Made by a program: the position numbers and the translations under genes. Positions 1-13,305 of a stretch of 13,305 bases of DNA are shown piece after piece. The DNA is taken from NCBI GenBank assembly GCA_031370645.1, contig JANMQV010000013.1, positions 1 through 13,305 on the forward strand. The letters run 5' to 3'. The first letter of the stretch is position 1. Each line of letters begins with the position of its first letter. The notes under the pieces are model-generated. The model was given only the letters and a program-made list of their open reading frames with translations. It had not been told where the DNA came from and did not search any database. The DNA comes from Candidatus Eiseniibacteriota bacterium. Lineage in GTDB: Bacteria; Eisenbacteria; RBG-16-71-46; SZUA-252.

Positions 1-1202
1 AACAGCGCGATCGCGCTCATCTCGTGAACGATCATCCACCGGTACTCCACCCGGCCGAGCAGGAGCTGCCGATCACGAAATCGGTTGGGGGCGTAGCCCG
101 CAAAGTTCGTGACGCCGTCGCTCCGAATAAGACGATAGAACGGAATGGTCGTGGTCGCGCTTCCGAGCGGTCCGATGCCGGCGTAGATGCCCCGGAATGC
201 CAGTACCCGCCGCTTGGCGAACACGGGAACGTAGGCGCGGCCCTCCAGATTCCACTGGTTGTAGTTTGGGTCGCTGGAGCGCACTCCCGACGCCCGTTTC
301 AGGTCGACGCGCGCATGGACGCCGCGCGACGGATGGCGGTTGTCGTCGAGAGCGGCGAAATCCGCGGTGACTCCGTACAGAAACTCCTGGGTCGCACGGT
401 CGTCGTACGGCACGTCGGCCGTCGCGAAGACCGCTTCCAATGGCGGTGACCCATTATAGGCGGAAAGCGGGGTCATGTTCGAATAGCCGCCCACGATTCG
501 CACCTGCCGCAGGCGCGAGCGGCCGAGAAGCAGCGCCGCCTCGGCGCTCATCGTCTCGAGCCGAAAGTAGGACAAGTCCGCCTCCGAGGAAGCGTTGCCG
601 ATTCCGTAGTAGCTCCGATTCGGTTTGTAGTCGTAGTCCGCGCGTAGAGCGACACTCACCGGGTGCCGCGTTCCGATCGCCTCGCTGAATCGGGCGTGTC
701 GGTGGTCCGGAAGGGACCACGAACCCGTGGCGCGAAGCCGGCTGTCCATGGTTGGAAATCCGACCCACGTTATCGCGGGACCGATTCCGAGAGTGGTTCC
801 GTCCCCGACGACGACGGATAGCGCCAGCGTAGGGGAAAGCGGTTCCGGACGATGCGGCTTCGGGTCGAGATACCGCGGGCCGAAATGCCCAACGCCCGCT
901 TCCAACCCATTGGCCACAAGCCGCAGCGGCAAGAACACGATCCGGAATGGCGTCCGCAGGGCTGTCTCCCACCGTCGCTCGTGATCGGGAGAGGCGACGC
1001 GCGGACCGTCGGTCGTGACTTCCGAGCGGAACATGTCGTCGGGGGCGACCCACGTGGAATCTCCAAAGCGCGCTTGTGCCCGGGCGCCGCTCGGCCCCAA
1101 GAGACTTACGACTTGGCATACGAGAAGCGCGAGCAAAAGCGCCGTGGCTCGCGGCCCTCGTCGATGCCCATCGTTTCTGACGACCTGCTGCGTGGTTTCG
1201 AT
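1..1202 (-). CDS. Omp85/BamA-TamA family outer-membrane beta-barrel protein without POTRA domains; 3' end lies outside the window; start codon uncertain
   Basis: Translated by hand; absent from the ORF track because there is no stop in the window. The frame is open from 1457 to the left edge. Signal peptide-like RRGPRATALLLALLVCQVVSLLGPSGARA|Q, then surface-antigen barrel motifs YYGIGN, DDNRHPSRG, EGRAYVPV, IPFY and FAGYAPNRFRDRQLLLGRVEYRW. Best RBS-supported start is ATC at 1202 (GAGGTG-N5); alternatives are TTG 1241, GTG 1259 and ATG 1364. Confidence 0.85.
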   Translation of the reverse strand, partial: METTQQVVRNDGHRRGPRATALLLALLVCQVVSLLGPSGARAQARFGDSTWVAPDDMFRSEVTTDGPRVASPDHERRWETALRTPFRIVFLPLRLVANGLEAGVGHFGPRYLDPKPHRPEPLSPTLALSVVVGDGTTLGIGPAITWVGFPTMDSRLRATGSWSLPDHRHARFSEAIGTRHPVSVALRADYDYKPNRSYYGIGNASSEADLSYFRLETMSAEAALLLGRSRLRQVRIVGGYSNMTPLSAYNGSPPLEAVFATADVPYDDRATQEFLYGVTADFAALDDNRHPSRGVHARVDLKRASGVRSSDPNYNQWNLEGRAYVPVFAKRRVLAFRGIYAGIGPLGSATTTIPFYRLIRSDGVTNFAGYAPNRFRDRQLLLGRVEYRWMIVHEMSAIAL

Positions 1203-1262
1203 GAACTCACCTCTCGAAGAGCCGGATGAACTTGATCCCAATTCGATAGTTAGGTACACACG

Positions 1263-1277
1263 GCAAGCCGTGTGCCA
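1263..1277 (-). promoter_or_regulatory. sigma54 (-24/-12) promoter for the Omp85 gene
   Basis: Minus strand reads TGGCACACGGCTTGC = TGGCAC-N5-TTGC, an exact match to the consensus. It lies between pit and the barrel gene and points toward the barrel gene. Confidence 0.8.
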
Positions 1278-1433
1278 CGACACCGTGTTCGAGGCCGTCG
1301 CGCGGCACCTCCGAAGCGGAGGCAAGCAACCCACGTGCTGAGCGCGACATGCGGATGCGTCCATGGCCGGCGCGGGGCGCCCCGCCGGGCCCCATTGACC
1401 GTTTGCGGCCACCCGCGCAGGCTCGGCGACGCG

Positions 1434-1468
1434 TTCAATTGAAAGGTTGGGGCCCCCTTATTTCAATC
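1434..1468. repeat. AT-rich inverted repeat/palindrome just downstream of pit (possible hairpin or protein-binding site)
   Basis: Perfect palindrome TTCAATTGAA (1434-1443) and inverted arms ATTGAAA (1438-1444) / TTTCAAT (1461-1467) in an otherwise GC-rich context. Confidence 0.35.
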
Positions 1469-1472
1469 GCAC

Positions 1473-2474
1473 TCAGTGGGTGATCGCGCGTGCCGCAAGC
1501 GCCGCGAGGAAGCCGAGTGCGGCCGTGACAGGAATCGTCAGGAGCCAGGCGCTGGCCATCGTCCGCACCACGCCCCAGCGCACGGCGTTCAGCCGCCGTG
1601 CGGCCCCGACTCCGAGGATGCTCGAACTGATCACGTGCGTGGTGCTGAGGGGAAATCCGAACCGCGACGCGACCTGAATCACGAGGGCCGCGGACGTTTC
1701 CGCCGCGAAGCCGTGAATCGGCTCAAGATGCGCGAAGCGCGTTCCCATCGTATGAATGATCCGGCGCCCCCCGGCGAAGGTGCCGGCGGCCATCGCGACG
1801 GCACTCACCACGATCACCCAGGCGGGCACCTGGAATGTCGAGATCACTCCCGCGCTCAACAGTCCGAGCGTGATGACTCCCATGGTCTTCTGCGCATCGT
1901 TGCTCCCATGGCTGAAGGCCATGAATGCGGCCGACACGATTTGCGTTCGACGGAAGATCGGTCCGACCCGCCGGGGCGGCATCTTCGCGAAGATTCGGAT
2001 GAGCACTCTCATCAAGGCCATCGCGATGATGAAGCCCGCCGCGGGTGACAGAAAGAGGGGGTACACGACCTTGTCCACGAGGACGCCCCAATGCGCCGAT
2101 CCGAACCCCAGGCTCGCGATTCCCGCGCCGAGGAGGCTCCCGATCAGCGCGTGGCTCGAGCTGCTCGGAATGCCGTAGTACCACGTGAAGAGATTCCAGG
2201 CGATGGCGCCGACGAGCGCGGCCGTGATGGCGACGAGCGGAACCGACGCGCCGACGATTCCACTTCCGACGGTCTTCGCCACTTCCGTCCCGCTCATCGC
2301 TCCGGCGAGATTCAGGACCGCCGCCATGAGAATCGCCAGCCAGGGCTTCAGGACGCGCGTGGAGATGACCGTGGCGACGGCGTTTGCGGTGTCGTGGAAC
2401 CCGTTGATGAAGTCGAACGCGACCGCGAGCGCGATGAGGACCAACAGCGGCGTCGTGAGTCCGTGATCAGGCAT
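1473..2474 (-). CDS. pit: Inorganic phosphate transporter, PiT family (333 aa)
   Basis: Both PiT signature repeats are present (INGFHDTANAVAT and SHGSNDAQKTMG), plus GIPSSSSHALIG and PLSTTH. Hydrophobic throughout. ATG overlaps the DUF47 stop (ATGCCTGA). Confidence 0.95.
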   Translation of the reverse strand: MPDHGLTTPLLVLIALAVAFDFINGFHDTANAVATVISTRVLKPWLAILMAAVLNLAGAMSGTEVAKTVGSGIVGASVPLVAITAALVGAIAWNLFTWYYGIPSSSSHALIGSLLGAGIASLGFGSAHWGVLVDKVVYPLFLSPAAGFIIAMALMRVLIRIFAKMPPRRVGPIFRRTQIVSAAFMAFSHGSNDAQKTMGVITLGLLSAGVISTFQVPAWVIVVSAVAMAAGTFAGGRRIIHTMGTRFAHLEPIHGFAAETSAALVIQVASRFGFPLSTTHVISSSILGVGAARRLNAVRWGVVRTMASAWLLTIPVTAALGFLAALAARAITH

Positions 2475-3096
2475 GTTTGATGGCGAGCCCGCGGAGCACG
2501 TCGGCGATGTCCTCGCACCTGTCCGTCACCTGCTCCATCGTCTCGTAGATCCGGCTCCAAGCGATTACCCGGATCGGGTCGTTAGGATGGTGGAAGAGTT
2601 CCATCACCCCCTCCCGAAGGAGCGTATCGGCTTGATTTTCGAGCCGGTGAAGTTCGACCACTCCCTCCTCAATGCTCCGCATCGTTCGCCGTTGCCGGAG
2701 TTTCGGGAGCTGCACGGCCACGGAGCGGGTACACGCGACGATGACGGCGGCGAGCGACGCCGCGATCGGGGTCGGCTCCTTGATGTTGTAGAGACACATG
2801 GCGTCGGCGGCCTCGTGAATGTGGTCCATCACGTCGTCGAGGGCGATGGTCATCGCGATGATGTCTTCGCGATCGAGGGGCGGGATAAAGACCCGGTTCA
2901 ACGCCTTGTAGATGGCGTGGGTGATCTCGTCGCCTTTGTGCTCGAGGTCGTGCAACTCCCCCACGATCCGCTCAGCGCTCGAGAAGTCATGGCAGATTTG
3001 GTCGAGCAACGTGGCGGCCTCGACGTTGTTCTGCGCGGCTTCCTCGAACCGACCGAAGAAATCGTCATTCGATTTTCGCGGCTTCAGTGTCTCCAC
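2467..3096 (-). CDS. DUF47 / PhoU-like phosphate transport regulator (209 aa)
   Basis: Motifs LEHKGDEITH, FIPPLDREDI, LDDVMD, RLENQAD and YETMEQVTDRCEDIAD; canonical position directly upstream of pit. Likely start is GTG 3096 behind AGGAAGGA, not 3525 as in the track. Confidence 0.92.
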   Translation of the reverse strand: METLKPRKSNDDFFGRFEEAAQNNVEAATLLDQICHDFSSAERIVGELHDLEHKGDEITHAIYKALNRVFIPPLDREDIIAMTIALDDVMDHIHEAADAMCLYNIKEPTPIAASLAAVIVACTRSVAVQLPKLRQRRTMRSIEEGVVELHRLENQADTLLREGVMELFHHPNDPIRVIAWSRIYETMEQVTDRCEDIADVLRGLAIKHA

Positions 3097-3154
3097 GTGT
3101 CCTTCCTGGAGCCAAGGCCCCAGCCACGGTTTCCTGCTACCGGAAGTCCGGCCC

Positions 3155-3760
3155 TTAAGGGGATTTCGTCTCTTCCTCGGTCTTGGCTCCGGGCGGTTCG
3201 TGCCCCAGCGCGGCCGCGGCCAGCGACGCACCCGCCGAGGGCTGCGGAACGGTCTCGTCGGTGTCCGCCTTGGGCGGCGCGACCTCTGCCGTGGGGACCT
3301 CGGGCTCCCCAGCCCCTTCGCTCTCGACGCGCGCCTCCTCCGGCCGCTCGGCCACAAGCGTCCGGAGTCGCTTGGCGAGCGCGCGCACGACCTCTTGAAG
3401 TAGTGGCAGATCGCCGGCAGCGACGTCGTAGAACTCGTCCCGGTGGAGCGCCAGCGCCATCCCGTCCTCCGTACACTCCGCACGGTGCCCGCGGGCCGAC
3501 TCGTCGACCAACGACCACGTGCCAAAGGCTTCCCCGGGACCCACCTCGGACATCGTCCGGTCCTCGGTCGAGAGTCGGACGCGACCCTCGACGACGATAT
3601 AGAGCGCGTCCGCCGGGTCTTCCGCGTTGTAGATCATGTCGCCCTTCACGATCTCGACTTCACGAGCGACTTCCGCCAAACCCAGGAGGTGACGCGGCCC
3701 GACATCGCTCAACAGGTCGGCGCGCTTGAGGGTCAGCACGCGCTCCACGGCGGTCAGCAT
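3155..3760 (-). CDS. Stand-alone cyclic-nucleotide-binding (CAP effector) domain protein with acidic Pro/Ala-rich tail, no HTH (201 aa)
   Basis: MLTAVERVLTLKRADLL...GDMIYNAEDPADALYIVVEGRVRL...VGPGEAFGTWSL...ARGHRAEC...LHRDEF fits the cNMP fold pattern. ATG 3760 overlaps the upstream stop (ATGCTGA). Confidence 0.88.
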   Translation of the reverse strand: MLTAVERVLTLKRADLLSDVGPRHLLGLAEVAREVEIVKGDMIYNAEDPADALYIVVEGRVRLSTEDRTMSEVGPGEAFGTWSLVDESARGHRAECTEDGMALALHRDEFYDVAAGDLPLLQEVVRALAKRLRTLVAERPEEARVESEGAGEPEVPTAEVAPPKADTDETVPQPSAGASLAAAALGHEPPGAKTEEETKSP

Positions 3761-6522
3761 GGCACGCTCGTCGGCACGATTGGTTCTTCCGCCGCTGGTC
3801 GCCGGTTGGTCTCTCGCATGATCTCCTTGGCGAGCACCGCCAATTCCGCACTCACCAGCGGATCCTTGAATCCGCCTGATTCGAACAGGGACGGATCCAA
3901 CGACGGTGAGAACCGCGATGCCCGAACGGCGCAGGCGCGGAGCCAATCGTCACCCCACTTCCAGGCGGCCCGGATTGGTTCGGCGACGTCGTCGCGACCT
4001 GCCGCCTCCTCCACCGTCACCTCCTCTGGTACGGTTCCTTCGAAAACTCTCGAGACAGGACGGAACACGGCGCGAGGGAGCACATGGCTAAGATACTCCA
4101 GCGCGGGCGCGGCGGCTTGAGGCTCCCGCGACCGGAGCCTCTCGAACGCCCCGGCGAGCGGTTTGGCCTCGTACCAGCACGCTAGTGCGCGGAGCCCGCG
4201 CTCGAGGCCCCATTCGGCCTGCTCCTCGAGGCTCGATGCGAAGAGCCTCACCTCGGCGGCGGCGTGCGCCGCGATCCCCTGGCTCGCCTCGCGATTCAAT
4301 CTTACACTCGCCAATTCTCGGAGAAACAATTTGTGAACCGTGGCGCGTGGAAGAACGGGCCTGCCGCGATTCGCGCGAATTCGGCTCAATCCCTCGAGGC
4401 CAAAGTGACGTAGGCGTGGATCGCCGGTTCGCGCCAGGACAATCAGGGCCTTGACGGCGCGAGGGGTCGCCATCCGCGCCAGCGTGCGTGCGGCGAGAGC
4501 CTGTGCCCAGGCGCCCCCGGCGCCCTGGAGTAGCGGCTCCAGCTTCGTGACGGCCGGATCGCCGATCGCCGCGAGCGCCTCGCGCGCCTCGTGACTCAAA
4601 TCGGGGATGAGGAAGAGCGGCAACAACACTTCGATCAATTCCCGGTGCGGCCGGCGCCTCGCGGAGACAAGCGCCACGCGCTTCACGTCCAGGTCGGGGT
4701 TGGCGAGTAGCGTACGAAGGAACCTTACGGAGGCCGTGCCGGACAGGACGCCCGCCGCGCGGGCCGCAAGCAGCAGATCCTCTCGCGAGCCGGCCGCGAT
4801 GCGGGCGTCGATCCACGCCGGCGTGATCGCATCGGGGGCTTCGTAGGGCCGCTCGAAAAGGGCGTCGAGAAGGTATTGCCGAACGGCCACTTCCTCCCCG
4901 TCCAAGATCAGGCGAGCGAATGTGGTCGCGTGGGGACTCTGGGCCAGCAGGTATCCGACCGCCGCGCGTCGAAGCGTCTCCTCCGACTCCTGCATGAACC
5001 CCTCGATCAACTTCTCCGGGTCGGACAGGCGCATCGCCCGCATCGCGTCCACCGCCGCGGTGCGAACAGCCGGCGACGAGTGTCGCAGACACCCGCGCAC
5101 CGCGCTCGCGACGCCTCGGTCCCGAACCGCGCGGCTCAATGTTAGTGCAAATACGATTCGTTGCTCGTCGTCCGCGCGGAGCGCCTCCATCAGCGCACGA
5201 CGCGCCGACGGCGTCCGAACGGCATCGGGCGTCGCCTCCGGCTCGATCCACCGGCTGCTCAGTGTCTGCTGGAATGCATCGCCGTACTGCCGGTTCAAGA
5301 CGATGAGAACGGCGACCCACGCCACCGACAGCGCGATGGTCACGACCGCGATCACCGACGTGCGAACGCCGACCGTGTGCAACACGACGATGAGCAACAA
5401 TCCCGCGGCCGCGTCCGACCACCGTTCCACGAGAGTATCGATGGCGGGCTTGATGCGGCGCCGCTCGCGGGGGTGGATGGCCGTGTAGTAGATCTCGGCC
5501 GACGACTTGCCCAGCGTCCCGAACACAATGCCTTGGATCCATCGCATCGCGACGATCACCAGCCAGATCGGGCTGAGGACGATCCACGACATGAAGGCCA
5601 CCGCCGTGATCGGTTGCAATGCGGTGGCGGCGCCAAGACCGAGCCGGCGTAGGATCAACCCCGCCACGCTGAACTGAAAGAGTAGGGAAAGCGCGTTTAG
5701 CCCCACGTAGAACTTCCCGAAGAACTGGGTGAGCGAGTGCTGATCCGGGTAGACACTCTGAATGTACAGTTTGAACTGAAAGTCGACGAGTGTGGATACG
5801 ACGACCGAGAGGGCGAGGGCAATCGTGAGCGTCTTGATGTAGGGAGAACGCAGGATGGCGCCCCAGCGCGATGTCTTCGTGCTTGCTTCCAGCGGCGCTG
5901 GTCGGAGCGCGCGGTTGCGTTCCACGATGCGTGTGAGGCCGTAGGACGCGACGAGAAGACCCGACATCGTCCACATGAGCCCGACGTGCTTGAGCAGTGG
6001 GGTCGACCAGGCTGCAAAGGCGCCTCCCGCCAAGCCTCCCAGCAATCCGCAGCCGCCGAATAACGGAAAGATGCTCCGCGCCCTGCGCGAGTCCCACACG
6101 TCGAGCGCGAGCCCCCAAAAGTGTGGCAAGAGCATCATCGCTTGACTGCCGGTCCAGATGTAGAAGGCCGCGATGGTCCAGTGGCGGGCGTGCGGGAGTG
6201 TGATCGCGGCCAGAATGCTGAAACCAATTGCGGCGTACTGGTTGAACCGCGTCGCGCCGACGTCCGTGAAGCGTCGCGCCACGATGCTTTCCAACCAGAC
6301 GAACCCTGCGGCCGCCACCGCGACGCCGATATAGGCGTACGGAAGCGCGAGGGCGCCGAATTCCGACAGGAAGAGGGCGTCACGTAGAATTTTGGCGATG
6401 GTGTAGGCGCAGAACAACGTCGCCACCAGCGCCCCCATGAGGACGAGAAGCCGTTGCTCATGCGACTCGATTCCGAGCCGGCGTCCAATTCCCCCGAGCC
6501 ATCGCTTCACGATGACGATCAC
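3754..6522 (-). CDS. NTT/TLC-family (Npt1/Npt2 ATP/ADP translocase-like) MFS transporter fused to C-terminal HEAT repeats (922 aa)
   Basis: N-terminal ~410 aa are multi-pass hydrophobic with NTT-like motifs YTIAKILRDALF, FWGLALDVWDSRRARSIFPLF, STLVDFQFK and EIYYTAIHPRERRRIKPAID. The C-terminal half has HEAT-like units (LRHSSPAVRTAAVDAM, LLANPDLDVKRVAL, EAREALAAIG, GDPRLRHFGLEGL, DDWLRACAV). Start is GTG 6522 or 6510. Confidence 0.85.
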   Translation of the reverse strand: MIVIVKRWLGGIGRRLGIESHEQRLLVLMGALVATLFCAYTIAKILRDALFLSEFGALALPYAYIGVAVAAAGFVWLESIVARRFTDVGATRFNQYAAIGFSILAAITLPHARHWTIAAFYIWTGSQAMMLLPHFWGLALDVWDSRRARSIFPLFGGCGLLGGLAGGAFAAWSTPLLKHVGLMWTMSGLLVASYGLTRIVERNRALRPAPLEASTKTSRWGAILRSPYIKTLTIALALSVVVSTLVDFQFKLYIQSVYPDQHSLTQFFGKFYVGLNALSLLFQFSVAGLILRRLGLGAATALQPITAVAFMSWIVLSPIWLVIVAMRWIQGIVFGTLGKSSAEIYYTAIHPRERRRIKPAIDTLVERWSDAAAGLLLIVVLHTVGVRTSVIAVVTIALSVAWVAVLIVLNRQYGDAFQQTLSSRWIEPEATPDAVRTPSARRALMEALRADDEQRIVFALTLSRAVRDRGVASAVRGCLRHSSPAVRTAAVDAMRAMRLSDPEKLIEGFMQESEETLRRAAVGYLLAQSPHATTFARLILDGEEVAVRQYLLDALFERPYEAPDAITPAWIDARIAAGSREDLLLAARAAGVLSGTASVRFLRTLLANPDLDVKRVALVSARRRPHRELIEVLLPLFLIPDLSHEAREALAAIGDPAVTKLEPLLQGAGGAWAQALAARTLARMATPRAVKALIVLARTGDPRLRHFGLEGLSRIRANRGRPVLPRATVHKLFLRELASVRLNREASQGIAAHAAAEVRLFASSLEEQAEWGLERGLRALACWYEAKPLAGAFERLRSREPQAAAPALEYLSHVLPRAVFRPVSRVFEGTVPEEVTVEEAAGRDDVAEPIRAAWKWGDDWLRACAVRASRFSPSLDPSLFESGGFKDPLVSAELAVLAKEIMRETNRRPAAEEPIVPTSVPC

Positions 6523-6528
6523 GAAGCG

Positions 6529-6744
6529 CTAGGCGAGGCGCTTTCTCGGCACGATGAGGAGCAAAACACCACCGAGCAGGGCGATCCCCCCAACGATGGG
6601 CGAGAGGGGGACGTTCTTCTGCTCGGTGGCCGTCGCCTGGAATGGGCCGACGTCGAGGACGGTGCGCTCCCTGTTGTAGCTGATCCCGCCGTAGACGAGC
6701 GCGAGCACACCGATAATGACTAGCACGAACCCGAATATCTTCAC
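6529..6744 (-). CDS. Small two-TM membrane protein, DUF3185-like (71 aa)
   Basis: MKIFGFVLVIIGVLALVYGGISY...VLDVGP...PLSPIVGGIALLGGVLLL pattern; GTG start behind a GGAGA RBS. Confidence 0.85.
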   Translation of the reverse strand: MKIFGFVLVIIGVLALVYGGISYNRERTVLDVGPFQATATEQKNVPLSPIVGGIALLGGVLLLIVPRKRLA

Positions 6745-6775
6745 GCTACTTCTCCAATCTGGCCCGGACGACGCT

Positions 6776-6925
6776 TCAGACCACCCGGCGACCTTGAATG
6801 ACGCGGAGCAACACGACGACGACAGCGATAACCAACAGAACGTGGATGAAGCCGCCCATCGTGTACGCGGTCACGAGCCCGAGCAGCCACAACGCGATGA
6901 GCACGACGGCAATAGTCCAGAGCAT
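6776..6925 (-). CDS. lmo0937-family small membrane protein (49 aa)
   Basis: Manual translation MLWTIAVVLIALWLLGLVTAYTMGGFIHVLLVIAVVVVLLRVIQGRRVV*, with the family pattern LWLLG...GG.IH.LLVIA and a GGGGGGA RBS. Shorter than any ORF in the track. Confidence 0.9.
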   Translation of the reverse strand: MLWTIAVVLIALWLLGLVTAYTMGGFIHVLLVIAVVVVLLRVIQGRRVV

Positions 6926-6998
6926 GGTTTTGTTCCCCCCGGCGCGCTTTTCGGCGCGGCTTTACGAGTATCGGAAAGCTGTTTTGCTTCTAGGCACA

Positions 6999-7013
6999 GC
7001 ATGACATGTGCCA
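6999..7013 (-). promoter_or_regulatory. sigma54 (-24/-12) promoter for the leftward operon
   Basis: Minus strand CTGGCACATGTCATGCT = TGGCAC-N5-ATGC (GG-N10-GC), about 75 bp upstream of the lmo0937-like ATG. Confidence 0.75.
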
Positions 7014-7084
7014 GCGCGTTCTCCGGCGTAACCGGTTGGGGTGCCACACTCCGCGCCCCCGCGATTCCACGGCGGGGCGGCTCA

Positions 7085-7111
7085 TGTAAAAGATTCCAGC
7101 CCGTTATTACA
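7085..7111. promoter_or_regulatory. Candidate enhancer (UAS) for the NtrC-family activator
   Basis: Near-palindrome TGTAA-AAGA-TTCCA (7085-7098) plus a TTACA half-site (7107-7111). AT-rich island ~70-100 bp upstream of the 6999-7013 promoter. Confidence 0.4.
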
Positions 7112-7340
7112 AAGATGCGGTGCCTCAGCGGCACGCCACGACTCACGCGAATTCGAACTTCGCGGACGGCGTCATCGACCGAGCTTCCGCGACTTTGTGA
7201 GGGTGCCACGGGCGAAAGTTGCGGCCATACCGGTCGTACGGGTGTATTCTCGACCTGTCTTAGCGGCGGGTCTTGCTGCGTGCAGGACCCGGCAAGACCA
7301 CAACTTGGTTCGTGATCCGCATGAAAACGGGGGTTTCCCG

Positions 7341-8678
7341 ATGTTGCACGCACTCCTCATTGACGATGACAGCGACTTCCTCGCAGGGTTGGCGGAAATC
7401 GCCGAGCAGGAAGGTTTCGCGATCGCCACGGCCGGCACGCTTACCGCCGGGCGCGAGCACCTCGGCAGCGTCGCGGTCGATATCGTGGTGGTTGATCTGG
7501 CACTTCCCGACGGGGAAGGGACCGCTCTTCTCGAGGAATTGAAGGACACGCCGACCGACGTGATCATCGTGTCGGGTGTGGCGACCGTCCATTCCGCAAT
7601 CGAAGCGCTGCGTCTCGGCGCGCTCGATTACCTCACGAAGCCGCTCGACGTCGGCCGCTTACGAGCCGTTCTCGCCAATGCCGCGCGCGTCCGATCGCTC
7701 AAAGATCAGGTCGGGTCGCTTCGGGCTGAATTGCGAAAATTCGGACGCTTCGGCCCCATGGTCGGGGAGTCTTCTCTGATGCAGAAGGTCTACGACATGA
7801 TCGCCAAGGTTGCCCCCACGGACGCCACGGTGCTGATTACCGGCGAGAGCGGCTCCGGGAAGGAACTCGTCGCACAGGCCATCGTCGACCTGAGTCCCCG
7901 GCGCGTCCGTCCTTTCATCCCGCTCGACTGCGGCGCGATCCCGCCGGCGCTCATCGAAAGCGAATTGTTCGGACATGAACGCGGCAGCTTCACCGGCGCG
8001 ACCCAGCAGCGGCGCGGGCACTTCGAGCGTGCGACCGGCGGCACCCTGTTCCTCGATGAGATCACGGAGATGCCGGTCGAATTGCAGGTGAAGTTGCTGC
8101 GTGTGCTCGAGTCCGGCGCTCTGACTCGCGTCGGGGGCGAGGCGCGCATTCCGGTGAACGTACGCTTGATCGCGGCATCGAATCGTCCGCCGCGCGAGGC
8201 CATTCTGGCTCGAAGGCTGCGGGAGGACCTCTACTACCGGTTGAATGTGTTTCCCATTGTTCTTCCCCCGCTCCGGGAGCGGGAGGGAGACGTGTTGATG
8301 CTGGCCGATCACTTCCTGGCCGTGCTCAATCGTGCCGATGGCACGACGAAGCGCCTGAGCGCTCGCGCTCGCGAACGGATCCGCGATTATGCCTGGCCCG
8401 GAAACGTCAGGGAGCTCAAGAACGAGATCCAGCGTGCCTACATCATGGGCGTCGACGTGCTCGAACTCGATGACCTGGGAGCCGAGGTTCGGGAAATCAC
8501 GCTCCAGGCAGGCGCCTCGCCGCCTCCCGACGTCGGGAGTTCACTCAACGATTCCGAGCGGCAGCTCATCTTGGCCACCCTGGATCATTGCGGTGGCGAC
8601 AAGAAGCGGGCCGCCGAGATTCTCGGGATCAGCCTCAAGACGCTCTACAACCGGCTCCACCTCTACGCCAAGATTTGA
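7341..8678 (+). CDS. sigma54-dependent response regulator, NtrC/Fis family (REC-AAA+-HTH, 445 aa)
   Basis: REC (LLIDDD, VVVDLALPDG, KP), Walker A GESGSGKE, ESELFGHERGSFTGA loop, Walker B LFLDE, REDLYYRL, WPGNVRELKN and HTH KKRAAEILGISLKTLYNRL. ATG 7341 follows a GGGGG RBS; the track's 100-aa N-terminal extension is probably spurious. Confidence 0.96.
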   Translation: MLHALLIDDDSDFLAGLAEIAEQEGFAIATAGTLTAGREHLGSVAVDIVVVDLALPDGEGTALLEELKDTPTDVIIVSGVATVHSAIEALRLGALDYLTKPLDVGRLRAVLANAARVRSLKDQVGSLRAELRKFGRFGPMVGESSLMQKVYDMIAKVAPTDATVLITGESGSGKELVAQAIVDLSPRRVRPFIPLDCGAIPPALIESELFGHERGSFTGATQQRRGHFERATGGTLFLDEITEMPVELQVKLLRVLESGALTRVGGEARIPVNVRLIAASNRPPREAILARRLREDLYYRLNVFPIVLPPLREREGDVLMLADHFLAVLNRADGTTKRLSARARERIRDYAWPGNVRELKNEIQRAYIMGVDVLELDDLGAEVREITLQAGASPPPDVGSSLNDSERQLILATLDHCGGDKKRAAEILGISLKTLYNRLHLYAKI

Positions 8679-8713
8679 TTGAAATAGCTTCCGAGAATTT
8701 GAAATTGCTGCCG
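8679..8713 (+). repeat. Tandem 15-bp direct repeat, 20-bp period (candidate enhancer sites)
   Basis: TTGAAATAGCTTCCG (8679-8693) and TTGAAATTGCTGCCG (8699-8713), 13/15 identical, ~110-140 bp upstream of the 8821 element. Confidence 0.55.
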
Positions 8714-8820
8714 CGCCGCTTCGCGGTCGGGGACTTCCCGTGCGGTGGTTTGCCGAACACAAACCACCAACACCGCGCCCGAGCAACGACTTCCAACAAG
8801 CCTCGAGTTGCCGATTCCGC

Positions 8821-8835
8821 TGGCACGATTCTCGA
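8821..8835 (+). promoter_or_regulatory. Imperfect sigma54 promoter upstream of the histidine kinase
   Basis: CTGGCACGATTCTCGA: perfect -24 element (TGGCACG), but GA instead of GC at -12; 80 bp before ATG 8916. Confidence 0.5.
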
Positions 8836-8915
8836 TATAGGCTTTCGATTTACGCCTCACCGTCTTGGTGGGCGCGCCGAACCATACCCTTTCGAAGCCT
8901 AGACAGGACCGCCCC

Positions 8916-10787
8916 ATGTGGAAGTGGTCTCACCAGCACACCCTGAACACCGGACTGATCGTGATCGGCCTCTTGGCGATCGTGAGCAGCGGCGCTTCCT
9001 TGTTCGCGTCGAAGGTACTGGTTCAGAGGATGGCCACGCTCGCCCTGGGCGAGGTGCAAGATCTCTCCGAAAGCCAGTCGCTTCGGCTCGACGGCCTTCG
9101 GGAAGTCTCGGACGTCGGCGCGTCGCTCCTCACTGGCGAGGAGCCCTACACGCAATCGGCTCGTGCGCGAAGCGCGGTGGTCCGCGCGAGGATCTCGCGG
9201 CTCCGAACGCAGATCGTCGACGCCGAGGGACGGGCCATGGTGGAGCGTATTCAGCTCGCCGAGAAAGAATTCCAGGACGCTTTCGAGCGGGCTCTGCTCG
9301 GCGCCGGCGGTCCTGAAACGCTCCTGACGGCCACGGGGTCGCGCGGGCGAGCGTTTCAACAGGCGCTCGACTCGCTCGTCGCTCACATGGAGCCGGCCGC
9401 TGTGGGAGGTCTCACGGCCACCCGTACATCCGTGGAACGGACGCAGACCGTGTTCAACGTCGTCACGACGGTCTCGATCGTGCTGGCGCTCCTCCTTTGC
9501 GTCATGCTGATCCTGCTCATCAATCGGACCTATCGGGAACAGTCGAGCGCCCGGCTGCTCGCCGAAGAGGGGCAAACCAGGACGTCCGAGGCCTTGCAGG
9601 AGGAAAGGGCGGCGAGCCATCTGAAGGACGAGTTTCTGGCGACCGTCTCCCACGAATTGCGCAACCCCCTGGCTCCGATCCTCACGTGGACCCAGCTCCT
9701 TCGAAGCGGGACGCTCGATAAGGAGAAGTCCGAACGCGGCCTGGAAGTCATCGAGCGAAATGTCATCTCCCTGTCTCAATTGATCGACGACCTCGTCGAT
9801 GTCTCCCGGGTCGCGTCGGGCAAGTTCCGGCTCGACGTGAGGGCCATCGATCTGGCCGGCGTCATTCGCACCGCCGTGGAGTCCCAGCGGCCCGCCAGCG
9901 ACGCGAAGAAGATCCGAGTTCAACTTGTCTTGGACGAACGGGCGGGGTTGATCTCCGGGGATTCGGAGCGTCTTCACCAAGTTGTGGGAAATTTGCTTTC
10001 GAACGCCATCAAGTTCACGCCAAAGGGCGGGAGCGTGCAGGTCACGCTCGGCCGCGCGGAGTCACACGTCGAATTGGCGGTCGCAGACACGGGAATCGGG
10101 ATTGAAAGCGTATTCTTGCCTCACGTCTTCGAACCATTCCAGCAGGCTATGGACGGATCGATGCGGCGTCACGGCGGGCTCGGGCTCGGCCTTTCGATCG
10201 TTCGTCACATTATCGAGCTGCATGGAGGCGAGATCGTCGCTGAAAGTGCCGGTTCCGGGCTTGGGTCGAGATTCACGGTCAAACTCCCCCTCCTCGGAAC
10301 GGGCGAGATGACGACGAACGGGCGCCCCAGACACCCCAGCGCCGGCGACGCTATTTCGCACGTCCTGCTCCGCCGGCTCGATAAGATCCGCGTCCTGCTC
10401 GTGGACGACGAGCCCACCGCGAACGAAGCCGTGCAGGCCTTGCTCGAATCTTGCGGAGCGGACGTGCGTGTCGCCGGTTCGGTCGCGCAAGCGATCCAGG
10501 TGTTCGACACGTGGAAACCCGACGTCCTCATTTCCGATATCGCGATGCCCGAGGAAGACGGGTACGCGCTGATCAAGAAGGTCCGCGCGCGAACCGGGGA
10601 GCAGGGCGGCGAGACGCCGGCGGCGGCGCTCACGGCCTACGCCAAGATCGAAGACCGCGTGAAAATCTTGGCCGCCGGATTTCAGATGTATCTCTCCAAG
10701 CCGGCCGACCCGAGCGAACTCATGGCGGTCGTGGCGAGCCTCGCATCCGGGCGGCGCGGGTCATCCGTGGAGCGCACCGAAGTCTAG
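8916..10787 (+). CDS. Membrane-bound hybrid sensor histidine kinase/response regulator (2 TM, HisKA, HATPase_c, REC; 623 aa)
   Basis: TM1 LIVIGLLAIVSSGASLF, helical extracytoplasmic segment, TM2 VSIVLALLLCVMLILLI, H-box FLATVSHELRNPL, N-box NLLSNAIKFT, DTGIGI, GGLGLGL, and REC motifs VLLVDDE, ISDIAMP, LTAYA, KP. ATG 8916 follows CAGGA. Confidence 0.95.
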   Translation: MWKWSHQHTLNTGLIVIGLLAIVSSGASLFASKVLVQRMATLALGEVQDLSESQSLRLDGLREVSDVGASLLTGEEPYTQSARARSAVVRARISRLRTQIVDAEGRAMVERIQLAEKEFQDAFERALLGAGGPETLLTATGSRGRAFQQALDSLVAHMEPAAVGGLTATRTSVERTQTVFNVVTTVSIVLALLLCVMLILLINRTYREQSSARLLAEEGQTRTSEALQEERAASHLKDEFLATVSHELRNPLAPILTWTQLLRSGTLDKEKSERGLEVIERNVISLSQLIDDLVDVSRVASGKFRLDVRAIDLAGVIRTAVESQRPASDAKKIRVQLVLDERAGLISGDSERLHQVVGNLLSNAIKFTPKGGSVQVTLGRAESHVELAVADTGIGIESVFLPHVFEPFQQAMDGSMRRHGGLGLGLSIVRHIIELHGGEIVAESAGSGLGSRFTVKLPLLGTGEMTTNGRPRHPSAGDAISHVLLRRLDKIRVLLVDDEPTANEAVQALLESCGADVRVAGSVAQAIQVFDTWKPDVLISDIAMPEEDGYALIKKVRARTGEQGGETPAAALTAYAKIEDRVKILAAGFQMYLSKPADPSELMAVVASLASGRRGSSVERTEV

Positions 10788-10839
10788 CTTGACGGCGGGG
10801 CGTGTGCGGATGATCGAGGCGCCAACAGCGCTTCGCGTC

Positions 10840-10855
10840 GGGTCGCGCCTTTGCA
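10840..10855 (+). promoter_or_regulatory. Possible sigma54 promoter upstream of the AI-2E permease
   Basis: GGGTCGCGCCTTTGCA: GG-N10-GC with a perfect -12 (TTGCA) but a weak -24; ~76 bp before TTG 10932. Confidence 0.4.
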
Positions 10856-10931
10856 CGAGACGGCGGCGAGCCGAAACCCGCATCGTGACCCGCCGTCTTT
10901 TCGTCCCCACCACATCCCGCGAGGTGAATTT

Positions 10932-12005
10932 TTGATTTCCGCACGCAGGGCGCTGCTCTGGGTCGCCGGCGTCGTGTTTCTCCTCGTCTGGGTCTTCCGG
11001 GACCTCGTCCTCTTGGTCGGGTACTCCGTCCTCCTGGCGTATGCCCTCCTTCCCGTCGTGGCGGCCTTGGAACACCCCCTGAGCCGCCGGGGCGCCCGGT
11101 TGCCACGGGGCGCCGCCGCCGCGGTCGTGATGGCTGGGCTGGTCACGATCGTCGGTTGGCTCCTCGCTCTCGCTGTGCCGCGGCTGGCGACTCAGGCGGC
11201 ACGATTCGCGGCAGGAGCGCCCGCGGCCATCGCCCGACTCGATCTGGGAGCGCGTGCGTACGGCGAGGCGCATGGGCTGAGCGCCTGGATGAATCCGGCG
11301 GTCGAAGCAGCGCGCACGAGCCTCTCCGACATTCTCCAAAACATGTCCGGTTCCCTCTCGCAGTGGGCCAGCGGCGGGTTCGGCGGACTCGGCCAACTTC
11401 TAGGCCTCGCTCTCCTGCCGGTGCTGTCGTTCTATCTCCTGGCGGAGCCGACGGCGGTACGGGTCAGCGTGCTTCGCTTCGTGCCCGAGAGCGCCCACTC
11501 CGAGCTCTCGCGTCTCGGCCGCGCCGTCGACCGCGCGCTGCGCGCGTATGTGCGGGGGCAGGCGATCGTCTGCCTGGTGATGGGAGTCAGCGTCGGCGTC
11601 CTCCTCGCCCTGATGGGATCTCCGGTGGCCTTGCTGCTCGGTCTGGTGGTCGCGTTCGCGGAATTGGTTCCCTATCTCGGCTTCCTGATCGCCGCGACGG
11701 CGATCGCTCTCGCCGGAGTGGCGGTGGGCCCGCTGCATGCCCTGGCCGGCGTCGGGGTCTATGTTGTCATCAATTGGGCGATCGGCACCTTCGTGGCGCC
11801 GCGCGTCATGGGCCGGTACCTCAAGATGCATCCCTTCGTCGTGACCGTCAGCATCCTCGCGGGCACCCAGGTGTTCGGACCCGCCGGCGCCCTGCTAGGA
11901 CTTCCGGGAGCAGCCATGCTCCAAGCCGTGGTCGGCGAGCTAGCCGTGCCCGCGCCACCCACCTCAGGGAAATCTGTTTCGATTCAGGCTCACACCCCCG
12001 ACTAG
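10932..12005 (+). CDS. AI-2E family (PerM/UPF0118) membrane transporter (~357 aa)
   Basis: Motifs LLAYALLPVV, LSFYLL, LRAYVRGQAIV, AELVPYLG, VAPRVMGRYLKMHPFVV and FGPAGALLGLP. Likely start is in-frame TTG 10932 after GAGGTG-N5 (track start 10851). Confidence 0.92.
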   Translation: MISARRALLWVAGVVFLLVWVFRDLVLLVGYSVLLAYALLPVVAALEHPLSRRGARLPRGAAAAVVMAGLVTIVGWLLALAVPRLATQAARFAAGAPAAIARLDLGARAYGEAHGLSAWMNPAVEAARTSLSDILQNMSGSLSQWASGGFGGLGQLLGLALLPVLSFYLLAEPTAVRVSVLRFVPESAHSELSRLGRAVDRALRAYVRGQAIVCLVMGVSVGVLLALMGSPVALLLGLVVAFAELVPYLGFLIAATAIALAGVAVGPLHALAGVGVYVVINWAIGTFVAPRVMGRYLKMHPFVVTVSILAGTQVFGPAGALLGLPGAAMLQAVVGELAVPAPPTSGKSVSIQAHTPD

Positions 12006-12007
12006 TC

Positions 12008-12022
12008 TGGCCTCGATCTTGC
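12008..12022 (+). promoter_or_regulatory. sigma54 (-24/-12) promoter for the DUF948-YtxH block
   Basis: CTGGCCTCGATCTTGC = TGGC-N7-TTGC (GG-N10-GC), directly after the AI-2E stop and ~93 bp before ATG 12116. Confidence 0.7.
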
Positions 12023-12115
12023 CGTACCTTCCTCGTGATCGTCGGATGTCTCGCTCGCGCCCGGCGATCGTTCGCGCTCTAAGCCCTTGTCTCGACACCC
12101 GAAGGAAGGTGCTTC

Positions 12116-12541
12116 ATGCCCGAGCTGCTCCAGATATGGATTGTAATCGTGACAATCGCGCTGCTCGTGATTGCCGTGCTGACGGCGCGCATGATGGATC
12201 GTCACTTGAGTAGGGTGGCCGATGATCTCTCGCGGCTCACCGCAGCGGTCAGCGAGTCCGTCGAGCGGATCAATCTGGTCACGCAGGAAGCCAGGGACTT
12301 GGTGGCGTCGGCTCGCGGGTTCGTCACTCCCGTTCAGCGCGTGGTCGATCGGTTCGTGGACATCGGCCAGCGCACGGCGACTCTTTCGTCCACGCTGCTC
12401 GAGGCAGTCGAGCCCCCCGTCTTCATCGCGGCCGCCGTCACTCAAGGGGTGAGGACCGGCGCCAATTTACTCCTGAACCAATTGTTGCTTCGACTCACTC
12501 ACCGCCGCACCTCGATCAATGGAGATCATGACCATGAATGA
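12116..12541 (+). CDS. DUF948/YtxG(YoxC)-like membrane-anchored coiled-coil protein (141 aa)
   Basis: Single N-terminal TM (IWIVIVTIALLVIAVL) followed by an amphipathic helical region; GGAAGGTG RBS; overlaps a YtxH-like gene, as in ytxG-ytxH. The family call rests on architecture and context. Confidence 0.7.
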   Translation: MPELLQIWIVIVTIALLVIAVLTARMMDRHLSRVADDLSRLTAAVSESVERINLVTQEARDLVASARGFVTPVQRVVDRFVDIGQRTATLSSTLLEAVEPPVFIAAAVTQGVRTGANLLLNQLLLRLTHRRTSINGDHDHE

Positions 12542-12905
12542 CACGTCCAATTCCAACGGCTCCTCGAACACCACTGCTGTCCTCCTCGGATTCGCCGTCG
12601 GCGCCGTCGTCGGGGCGGGAGTCGCGCTCCTCCTGGCGCCCGAGAGCGGTAGGAAGACGCGAGAACGCCTTACCTCGACGGCTCAGCGCGTCGGCAAGAG
12701 CGCCGGAGAAACCATGGATCAGGCGCGCGCGACCATGGTGGAGATGGGGTCCGACGCGAAGTCGGCCATCAAGGCCGGCCAGGAAGCGTTCTTGAAGGAC
12801 CTCGGCACGCGCGAGTCGCGTTCCGACCGCCGTATGACGCACGCCGGCGAGGCCGCCGCGGTTGTCGGCTCCGCGCTTCGCGACGGCGATGAGATGTCCC
12901 GATGA
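12534..12905 (+). CDS. YtxH-domain general-stress-type protein (~123 aa)
   Basis: Signature LLGFAVGAVVGAGVALLLAPESGRKTRERL followed by a hydrophilic helical tail. GGAGA RBS 8 nt before ATG 12534 (ATGAATGA overlap with the upstream gene). Confidence 0.9.
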   Translation: MNDTSNSNGSSNTTAVLLGFAVGAVVGAGVALLLAPESGRKTRERLTSTAQRVGKSAGETMDQARATMVEMGSDAKSAIKAGQEAFLKDLGTRESRSDRRMTHAGEAAAVVGSALRDGDEMSR

Positions 12906-12968
12906 TCCGTGCGGGTCACTGGACTCACCGAATCTGTCGCGGTTTCCGCGTAGCAGGGAGGAACTAAC

Positions 12969-13160
12969 ATGCCGCTCGTGAACGTAGTCGTCACCTTGCT
13001 CGTCGTCGGGGTGTTGCTCTGGTTGATCAACACGTACTTCCCGATGGACGCGAAGATCAAGAGCATCCTCAACATCGTCGTCGTTATCGGCGTGGTGATC
13101 TGGCTCCTCCAGGCGTTCGGGATGATGGGAAGCATGGGGAACATGAGAGTCGGTCGGTAA
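12969..13160 (+). CDS. Small two-TM membrane protein, Thivi_2564-like (63 aa)
   Basis: MPLVNVVVTLLVVGVLLWLINTYFPMDAKIKSILNIVVVIGVVIWLLQAFG; strong GGGAGGA RBS. Confidence 0.85.
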   Translation: MPLVNVVVTLLVVGVLLWLINTYFPMDAKIKSILNIVVVIGVVIWLLQAFGMMGSMGNMRVGR

Positions 13161-13170
13161 CAGAACGTAA

Positions 13171-13209
13171 CGCCTTCGAACCAACCGAGGCGGGGCTGTG
13201 AATAGCCCC
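13171..13209 (+). terminator. Two adjacent GC-rich hairpins after the last gene (possible terminator/stabiliser)
   Basis: CGCCT(T)CG...CGAGGCG (13171-13192) and GGGGCTG-TGAA-TAGCCCC (13192-13209). No U-tract follows, and the downstream sequence is of doubtful quality. Confidence 0.3.
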
Positions 13210-13305
13210 AGGCGCCCGGGGGCCCACTAACAAACCCGGGACGCAGTTGCCCCATAAACCGACCAAAAGACACCCCCCAAAAAAAAACCCAATTAGGGAA
13301 ACCCC

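Follow-up and report, generated by a model that had tools for sequence, protein, structure and literature searches.

A two-component system of Eisenbacteria and the sigma-54 promoters of membrane and stress-type genes that it probably drives

Genes of the csbD, ytxH, lmo0937 and osmY-type BON kinds are textbook markers of regulons that are run by dedicated stress sigma factors, and to our knowledge it is largely unknown how such genes are controlled in the many phyla without RpoS, SigB or EcfG. Contig JANMQV010000013.1 of Candidatus Eiseniibacteriota bacterium, an uncultured organism from sediment, raises this question in a compact form. Its 13,305 bases, which make up the whole contig (C78) and are called the window throughout, carry an NtrC-type response regulator, a hybrid histidine kinase and a series of genes for membrane proteins, and a first-pass annotation had proposed that five -24/-12-type elements tie general-stress-type genes to sigma-54 in a self-contained regulon. 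Are these elements sigma-54 promoters, does the local activator drive them, and is the regulon confined to this locus? The analysis indicates that the contig probably holds a two-component system together with part of its sigma-54 regulon, in which the activator would drive units of the window via upstream sites. Sigma-54 control of the lmo0937 unit and its tie to the local activator both have good support, and for the other units both are plausible.

The five strings lie where they had been reported, intergenic and co-oriented with the next gene. A loose TGG-N9-TGC pattern is not enriched in the window (10 found against 6.1 expected; 18 of 200 shuffles reach 10), and therefore a genome-trained matrix was used. 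This 23-nucleotide (nt) sigma-54 matrix was trained on other contigs of the same genome only (45 seed sites, 64 after three rounds) and was scored at every genome position (5,986,398). The genome comprises 3.0 Mb in 247 contigs, with 66% G+C and an estimated completeness of 95%, and the rpoN gene that the proposal presupposes is present in it as one match (PF04552, 219.6 bits, contig C106, in an open frame of 526 amino acids (aa)). The elements, with the number of genome positions that score as high and the gap to the gene start, are:

1263..1277, minus strand: predicted sigma-54 promoter TGGCACACGGCTTGC of the Omp85-family gene; 18.1 bits, 33 positions as high; gap 60 nt to an ATC at 1202 (126 nt to a TTG at 1136)
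6999..7013, minus strand: predicted sigma-54 promoter TGGCACATGTCATGC of the lmo0937 unit; 13.7 bits, 91 positions as high; gap 73 nt
8821..8835, plus strand: -24-type element TGGCACGATTCTCGA before the kinase gene, without a -12 GC; 12.9 bits, 111 positions as high; gap 80 nt
10840..10855, plus strand: reported element GGGTCGCGCCTTTGCA, unsupported as a promoter; less than 5 bits, more than 2,900 positions as high; gap 76 nt
12008..12022, plus strand: predicted sigma-54 promoter TGGCCTCGATCTTGC of the DUF948-like/YtxH/Thivi_2564 unit; 12.9 bits, 110 positions as high; gap 93 nt

The elements at 1263, 6999 and 12008 have the GG-N10-GC spacing within TGGCAC-N5-TTGC. The element at 8821 reads TCGA in place of TTGC, the C of which is present in every training site, and owes its score to the -24 half and the flanks; at 10840, the spacing is present in a poor -24 context. 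Exact TGGCAC-N5-TTGC occurs 14 times in the genome, and 10 of the 14 copies are intergenic and upstream of a co-oriented gene, a kind of space that occupies roughly 4% of the strand-specific genome (92% of the genome is coding). In the band of 12-14 bits, 14 sites lie upstream of co-oriented genes, 4 in other intergenic DNA and 37 in coding sequence; according to a rough estimate, about nine in ten upstream sites of this strength are real. The genome appears to have roughly 60-70 sigma-54 promoters by the matrix scan. Four of its 125 sites of at least 12.5 bits are in the window, where about 0.55 would be expected (Poisson P of about 0.0025 by our own arithmetic), so that the contig ties for the densest 13.3-kb span.

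Orthologues of the activator were searched for in 41 genomes, and 17 orthologous loci were fetched, which makes 18 with the window. Among these 41 genomes, the orthologues (58-88% identical) are confined to the same family, all other matches being at most 48% identical. In the closest relative, G002, the enhancer-binding protein (EBP) is 88% identical, and the locus is syntenic throughout except for PHO4 and PhoU_div, which it lacks. The counterparts of 1263, 6999 and 12008 stand at the same places in G002 and score 15.6-17.1 bits. The 15-mer at 6999 is identical there, with TGGCAC..G...TG invariant in 5/5 genomes, and the counterpart of 12008 (15.6 bits) has a single change in the spacer. The spacer before the Omp85-family gene has diverged from that of G002; in it, the 1263 promoter, an inverted repeat upstream of this promoter and an in-frame ATC with its ribosome-binding site stand out as conserved islands. 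Judged by score and conservation together, these three elements are taken to be real sigma-54 promoters.

The remaining two elements fared differently. At 8821, the -24 half GGCACGATTCT is invariant in 3/3 genomes that have the kinase downstream. Because relatives in the second Eisenbacteria clade, the Thermoanaerobaculia and the Myxococcota carry the canonical TGGCACGATTGCTGC at this position, right after the EBP gene, and because the -24 half does not vary, the element looks like a degenerate descendant that is still constrained. The 10840 element has no counterpart in G002, where only 4 bp separate the kinase gene from the AI-2E gene. What had been put forward as five sigma-54 elements is therefore upheld by score and by G002 in three cases, stands above the genome background in a fourth of which only the -24 half is conserved, and fails on both counts at 10840.

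Two side observations concern these control regions. About 30 nt before the 6999 promoter, and oriented like it, there is a second GGCACC word (window 7036-7052, minus strand), which G002 shares and which reads GG-N10-GC there. The 93-nt leader of the DUF948-like gene (12023-12115) is about 87% identical to that of G002 (L032 5655-5747), far above other spacers, and may hold a structured or regulatory RNA element.

The tie between promoter and activator is closest for lmo0937. Across the 18 loci, membership of a sigma-54 unit was found for lmo0937 in 9 of 11 cases, for DUF948 in 6 of 9, for the 71-aa gene in 4 of 5, for Thivi_2564 in 3 of 3 and for Omp85 in 2 of 6. Six of the seven lmo0937 copies beside the activator have a sigma-54 promoter (five directly upstream, one via an upstream operon gene), and none of the eight copies away from the activator has a site of at least 12 bits. 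The sigma-54 promoter follows the activator locus, not the lmo0937 gene family. Among 16 family genomes, all eight with lmo0937 have an activator orthologue and none of the six without an orthologue has lmo0937, counts that come from kin and are hence not independent.

Sequences of the kind that an activator might bind lie upstream of several of the elements:

7085..7112, read on the minus strand: candidate activator-binding site TTGTA-N18-TTACA, centred about 110 nt upstream of the predicted lmo0937 start point
1436..1469, no strand: inverted repeat TTGAAA-N16-TTTCAA, a variant upstream-activator-like site, some 200 nt ahead of the start point predicted for the Omp85 gene
8678..8705, plus strand: two TGAAAT words 20 nt apart, which follow the EBP stop codon directly and precede 8821 by about 130 nt

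The TTGTA and TTACA half-sites at 7085-7112 are invariant in 5/5 aligned relatives. With an upstream-site matrix built from six instances outside the window, this site scores 22.4 bits and is the best non-training match of the genome. TTGTA-N18-TTACA recurs about 90 nt upstream of the sigma-54 promoters of PPK2 (contig C34) and of a 295-aa protein matching no family (C178), and related upstream sites precede sigma-54 promoters on C48 and C32. The inverted repeat at 1436-1469 scores 9.9 bits with the same matrix; both of its arms are kept in G002, and its flanks have diverged. The pair of words at 8678-8705 scores 10.6 bits, and G002 has a related TGTAA...TGAAA block at the same place. Assignment of the Omp85, kinase and DUF948 promoters to the local activator appears less secure.

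The second Eisenbacteria clade and other phyla have a palindromic form of the site, TTGTA-N5-TACAA. Of the sigma-54 sites near the activator, 11 of 21 in that clade and 8 of 26 in the other phyla have TGTA-N5-TACA upstream, compared with 1 of 104 sigma-54 sites elsewhere in the genome of the window. The sole TGTA-N5-TACA palindrome in the 3 Mb of the genome stands about 125 nt before the 18.4-bit promoter of an OmpA-family gene.

Further matches to the upstream-site matrix were noted. On C32 (23379-25042), SppA and an IHF/HU-like gene stand behind a 16.8-bit sigma-54 promoter whose upstream site is longer by two bases. The second-best non-training match of the window (10657-10690, 17.8 bits) falls inside the 3' end of the kinase coding sequence, some 150 nt ahead of 10840, and may be a chance match in a conserved stretch coding for a receiver domain. 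A generic repeat search returned families at chance level only.

The two regulatory proteins are of the kinds that the first-pass annotation had named, and domain scans and key residues agree on this:

7341..8678, plus strand: NtrC-type enhancer-binding response regulator (PF00072, PF00158, PF02954)
8916..10787, plus strand: membrane hybrid histidine kinase (HisKA, HATPase, REC)

The EBP has a receiver (REC) domain with the acceptor Asp in DLALPDG, an AAA+ sigma-54 interaction domain with Walker A GESGSGKE, Walker B DE and the loop GSFTGA, and a Fis-type helix-turn-helix domain (PF25601 is matched in addition to the families listed). Among the best 25 of 98 matching models, it stays below the cut-off of every named NCBIfam equivalog: NtrC, which scores best, reaches 373 bits (cut-off 558.6), AtoC 363 (714), ZraR 320 (760) and PspF 270 (444). 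In the kinase, two transmembrane helices enclose a domain of about 150 aa, which had no match in family scans, and are followed by HisKA with the phospho-acceptor His, HATPase_c and a C-terminal REC.

A mechanism can be proposed from these parts. The membrane kinase would sense a signal of the envelope or water-stress type and would phosphorylate the receiver domain of the activator. The activator would then assemble on upstream sites made of TGTA/TACA half-sites, in this lineage TTGTA-N18-TTACA as at 7085-7112, and would use ATP to open complexes of sigma-54 RNA polymerase waiting at the -24/-12 promoters, the outcome being the production of membrane and envelope stress proteins. The best-supported driven unit is that of lmo0937, the 71-aa protein, TLC/HEAT and cNMP; the DUF948-like/YtxH/Thivi_2564 unit and the Omp85-family gene are probable ones. 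Outside the window, the genes for an M15-type peptidase, PPK2, the 295-aa protein and the OmpA-family protein would be driven as well. The unit of kinase and AI-2E, behind its conserved degenerate element, may give weak feedback. The genes of these units, called from open reading frames (ORFs), a crude codon-bias gene caller and family scans, are:

6776..6925, minus strand: lmo0937-family (DUF5670) membrane protein, 49 aa, heads its unit (NF033488, PF18919)
6529..6744, minus strand: 71-aa two-helix membrane protein (sub-threshold DUF3185 match)
3754..6522, minus strand: TLC-like transporter with HEAT repeats, 922 aa (family scan)
3155..3760, minus strand: cNMP-binding protein (family scan)
12116..12541, plus strand: DUF948-like membrane protein (sub-threshold DUF948 match)
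12519..12905, plus strand: YtxH membrane protein (PF12732, 59.4 bits, cut-off 37.5)
12969..13160, plus strand: Thivi_2564-family membrane protein (NF041949, 74.6 bits, cut-off 33)
3..1202, minus strand: Omp85-superfamily outer-membrane protein gene, runs off the contig (PF01103, E 6.5e-10)
10932..12005, plus strand: AI-2E family transporter (PF01594, 174 bits, cut-off 34.3)

The family names given at first sight hold for lmo0937 (NF033488 65.2 bits, cut-off 30; PF18919 57.9 bits; the sole copy found in the genome), YtxH, Thivi_2564 and AI-2E, which are above their cut-offs. DUF948 (20.4 bits against a Pfam gathering cut-off of 37.2) and DUF3185 (13.7 against 25.3) are below theirs, and distant membership of the DUF948-like and 71-aa proteins in these families is possible, given end-to-end profile alignment. 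For the Omp85-family gene, the most likely start codon is an in-frame ATC at 1202 with a GAGGTGA ribosome-binding site 5-6 nt before it (window 1195-1215), both being kept in G002 (L032 14860-14900); the alternative TTG at 1136 is less favoured because the charged beginning of the signal peptide would be cut off. The AI-2E gene is most likely co-transcribed with the kinase gene because the two genes abut in G002. The TLC/HEAT and cNMP genes form the tail of the lmo0937 unit, with a gap of 6 nt before the pair and an overlap of 7 nt within it.

Several observations count against a circuit in which the local activator runs a stress regulon from all of these promoters. The AI-2E element is at background, and the kinase element is non-canonical, lacking the -12 GC in all three genomes that have it. 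The canonical upstream site is found only at the lmo0937 promoter; the Omp85, kinase and DUF948 promoters have weak TGAAA variants (9.9 and 10.6 bits) or none. Near orthologues of the activator, YtxH stands behind a sigma-54 site in only 2 of 11 cases when judged by transcription unit and in 4 of 19 when judged by distance. No Hpt domain was found in the kinase or in the window, so that a route of phosphorylation to the activator is not evident. The units also hold Omp85-family, TLC-like/HEAT and cNMP-binding proteins, which are not classical general-stress genes, and a number of the targets belong to the envelope and not to the classical stress proteins. On C153, a second sigma factor of a group-1/2-like kind is encoded, which makes a dedicated stress sigma factor possible. 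Finally, about 19 other EBPs are encoded in the genome and could serve the Omp85, kinase and DUF948 promoters. The proposed wiring through the local activator has support from co-occurrence, from the conserved upstream site and from neighbourhoods in other phyla, whereas for the window promoters as a whole we infer it.

The physiological label may be either general stress or envelope stress. A tentative alternative is that the system responds specifically to envelope or outer-membrane stress, in the manner of Psp or Zra, and that any general stress role rests with the C153 sigma factor. The targets predicted in the window are nearly all membrane or envelope proteins (Omp85, lmo0937, the 71-aa protein, YtxH, the DUF948-like protein, Thivi_2564 and AI-2E), and those elsewhere include the M15-type peptidase, the OmpA-family protein and SppA, all of which would suit such a response. 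The same holds for the presence, besides RpoD and FliA, of a second RpoD/RpoS-like protein of 377 aa on C153 that scores 241 bits with the proteobacterial RpoS model (cut-off 379). The best score with that model, 295 bits, comes from the RpoD gene, and the SigB/F/G models (best 130 bits against a cut-off of 234) are not reached in the genome; EcfG and PhyR were not searched for. The exclusion of SigB, RpoS and EcfG in the first-pass annotation is supported for the SigB/F/G and RpoS models at their cut-offs, but it is qualified by the C153 protein and does not extend to EcfG. CsbD and BON genes were not found in this 95%-complete genome, where a missing match does not amount to absence. However, orthologous activators elsewhere adjoin CsbD, BON, YflT, DUF892, DUF883 and OtsA, which are cytoplasmic or periplasmic families of general and osmotic stress, and PPK2 is likewise a predicted target.

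It is rather unlikely that several regulons meet at this locus, with the local activator running only the lmo0937 unit and distant promoters with the same site, the Omp85 and DUF948-YtxH promoters obeying other EBPs, and the clustering reflecting a shared envelope function and not one circuit. There would be no shortage of regulators for this, as the sigma-54 interaction domain is matched 23 times in the genome (19 of these matches are strong and full-length) and there are many promoters to be shared out. In addition, only 1 of 4 window promoters has the canonical upstream site, the Omp85 site uses a different half-site word (TGAAA) at a distance of about 200 nt, and Omp85 genes belong to a sigma-54 unit in a minority of loci. 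Yet DUF948 promoters of the second Eisenbacteria clade do carry TTGTA-N5-TACAA upstream, the TGAAA and TGTAA words swap between the window and G002 at the homologous site after the EBP gene, and the density of sigma-54 sites on the contig is matched but not exceeded elsewhere in the genome. Finally, that the motifs are chance matches in G+C-rich intergenic DNA without any sigma-54 dependence, as the unenriched loose pattern and the one element at background might suggest, is highly improbable in view of the matrix scores, the genome-wide enrichment upstream of genes, the retention of sites in relatives and the islands of conservation within diverged spacers, and is already contradicted for three of the five sites.

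The reading in which the local two-component system drives units of the window gains a wider setting from the distribution of the activator. A scan of 185,579 species genomes yielded 80 loci with activator relatives (52-71% identical), whose EBPs are nearer to the window activator than its own-genome paralogues are (at most 48%). In a FastTree tree of 155 distinct sequences, all of these relatives fall together with the window activator into a clade of 137 rows with an SH-like support of 100, a local support as are all those of the tree, and 0 of 17 own-genome paralogues fall inside. The loop reads GSFTGA instead of GAFTGA in 128 of the 137 rows. The clade was found in Eisenbacteria, Binatota, Acidobacteriota, Myxococcota, Planctomycetota and Burkholderiales. 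By profiles made from seed neighbours, a stress-type ORF lies within 5 kb in 111 of 137 clade rows (Eisenbacteria 21 of 22 distinct, other non-Pseudomonadota 9 of 16, Pseudomonadota 80 of 98) and in 0 of 17 paralogues; these counts are tempered by the choice of stress families after the loci had been viewed, by the close kinship of many rows and by the inclusion of both members of Burkholderiales EBP pairs. The Pfam neighbours of clade members include CsbD, BON, YflT, YtxH, DUF892, DUF883, DUF1328 and OtsA, many of them behind sigma-54 sites, and are distributed as follows:

Second Eisenbacteria clade: YflT, CsbD, DUF892, YtxH
Binatia: CsbD, BON, YflT, YtxH, SRPBCC protein, OmpA, PLD/VTT, MgtC
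Acidobacteriota: BON
Thermoanaerobaculia: YflT
Paraburkholderia, Caballeronia, Ralstonia: DUF883, DUF1328, trehalose-6-phosphate synthase, BrkB (the Ralstonia locus additionally holds a second rpoN)

One might speculate that a single ancient NtrC-type clade, marked by the GSFTGA loop and, outside the Pseudomonadota, by the TTGTA-N5-TACAA site, is the master switch of a sigma-54-dependent response to general, osmotic or desiccation stress. In the Pseudomonadota branch, the palindrome is not a shared feature (1 of 91 sigma-54 sites), and on this figure the idea that the Burkholderiales relatives use the same upstream site was rejected. If the speculation is correct, a further architecture of the general stress response stands beside RpoS, SigB and EcfG, and the window is one lineage-specific version of it. 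Placing stress genes behind enhancer-dependent promoters under a conserved two-component activator would provide a tight off-state and an ATP-gated switch that depends on a signal. The presence of the clade in cultured Burkholderiales, next to otsA and DUF883 genes, makes it genetically testable even though Eisenbacteria are uncultured.

It should be asked how this system compares with known ones. In E. coli, osmY (BON), yjbJ (CsbD), elaB, yqjD and ygaM (DUF883), yciEF (DUF892), otsBA and ytjA (DUF1328) are RpoS-dependent. It is their families that adjoin clade members in Burkholderiales and other phyla, and only some of them occur in the genome of the window; the RpoS system relies on a stationary-phase sigma-70 factor, whereas the clade is associated with sigma-54 sites and an activator gene. 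Enterobacterial ZraSR-ZraP and PspF-pspABCDE are sigma-54 systems of envelope stress, in which such a promoter and an EBP switch on genes for the protection of membrane and envelope, and ZraR is built of REC, AAA+ and helix-turn-helix domains. The window activator shares this build with ZraR, but is an equivalog of neither ZraR nor PspF by the scores given above. No homologue of ZraP or PspA was seen among the annotated targets, and the target set and the upstream site differ from those of Zra and Psp. NtrB-NtrC has the same response-regulator architecture and class of mechanism; unlike it, the window system has no nitrogen-assimilation targets and its kinase is of the membrane hybrid type, in line with a score below the NtrC cut-off.

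The SigB regulons of B. subtilis and L. monocytogenes comprise the same families, of which YtxH, DUF948/YtxG-like and lmo0937 proteins occur in the window and CsbD and YflT beside orthologous activators. There, a partner-switching cascade frees a group-3 sigma-70 factor, whereas the window has an ATP-driven enhancer-binding response regulator and sigma-54. The SigB membership stated in the first-pass annotation agrees with passages of the literature, which report that lmo0937 is reduced in a Listeria sigB mutant (PMC7690807) and that Bacillus ytxGH-brxC is under SigB and SigH (PMC8113031). The Ralstonia rpoN2 locus contains two EBPs of the clade, 54-56% identical to that of the window, together with the second rpoN and DUF1328, DUF883-like and BrkB genes. 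One of these EBPs bears a REC domain and the other lacks it, and they are accompanied by a dedicated second sigma-54, whereas the window genome has one rpoN match; the palindrome of the other phyla is likewise missing there. In the relevant passages of PMC4676750, the Ralstonia genes RSp1667 and RSp1668 are given no function, and their predicted targets are each other and rpoN2. In the full-text literature, supplements aside, no description of a sigma-54 wiring of these stress families was found, and the pertinent portions of the main texts of two comparative sigma-54 papers (PMC12316311, PMC3162934) do not mention it. The regulon is enhancer-dependent and as such of a known kind; what makes it interesting above all is the spread of the activator clade, with its company of stress genes, over several phyla.

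The regulon does not end with the contig. The window stops 145 nt past the Thivi_2564 gene in an A/C-rich tail of low complexity, and contig C34 opens on the last part of a Thivi_2564-like gene, 83% identical at this 3' end. Next on C34 come a sigma-54 promoter, the M15-type peptidase gene, a second sigma-54 promoter with its upstream site, and PPK2, and the same order follows Thivi_2564 in G002. Because the locus continues onto C34 by synteny with G002, and because the upstream site recurs elsewhere (C34 and C178, with related forms on C48 and C32), the regulon is not self-contained, contrary to the first-pass annotation. The comparison of window 13071-13305 with C34 1-400 points either to an assembly break from strain variation or to a second paralogous gene. 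As to related genes elsewhere, the YtxH gene of the window is the sole YtxH match of the genome, and the sole YflT match, on C137, has no sigma-54 site of at least 8 bits upstream.

The stretch from the cNMP gene to the Omp85 control region holds two further, co-directional genes (1473..3096, minus strand):

1473..2474, minus strand: PHO4 phosphate-transporter gene (family scan)
2467..3096, minus strand: PhoU_div (DUF47) gene (family scan)

They have no match at the corresponding place of the otherwise syntenic G002 locus, which indicates an insertion in the window or a loss in G002. The fusion of a TLC-like transporter with HEAT repeats in 922 aa is translationally coupled to the cNMP-binding protein, and this pair stands beside the EBP in 3 of 18 loci. 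A scan of the window for sigma-70 promoters and terminators gave one promoter-like site, inside a gene, and five terminator-like ones, counts at or below those of shuffled sequence with none in the control regions; it was uninformative on the expression of the activator gene itself.

A last observation concerns a subclass of sigma-54 sites in the genome whose spacer is nearly fixed, namely TGGCACCGTTCCTGC and variants of it by one or two bases. Its sites are:

C48:9467
C186:16726
C210:7112
C217:18994
C124:23563
C210:19743
C210:33301
C208:7473

This subclass is probably a separate regulon. One of its sites precedes an Ice-binding-like/Big_5 gene, and a similar site stands before an Ice-binding-like gene in the G011 locus.

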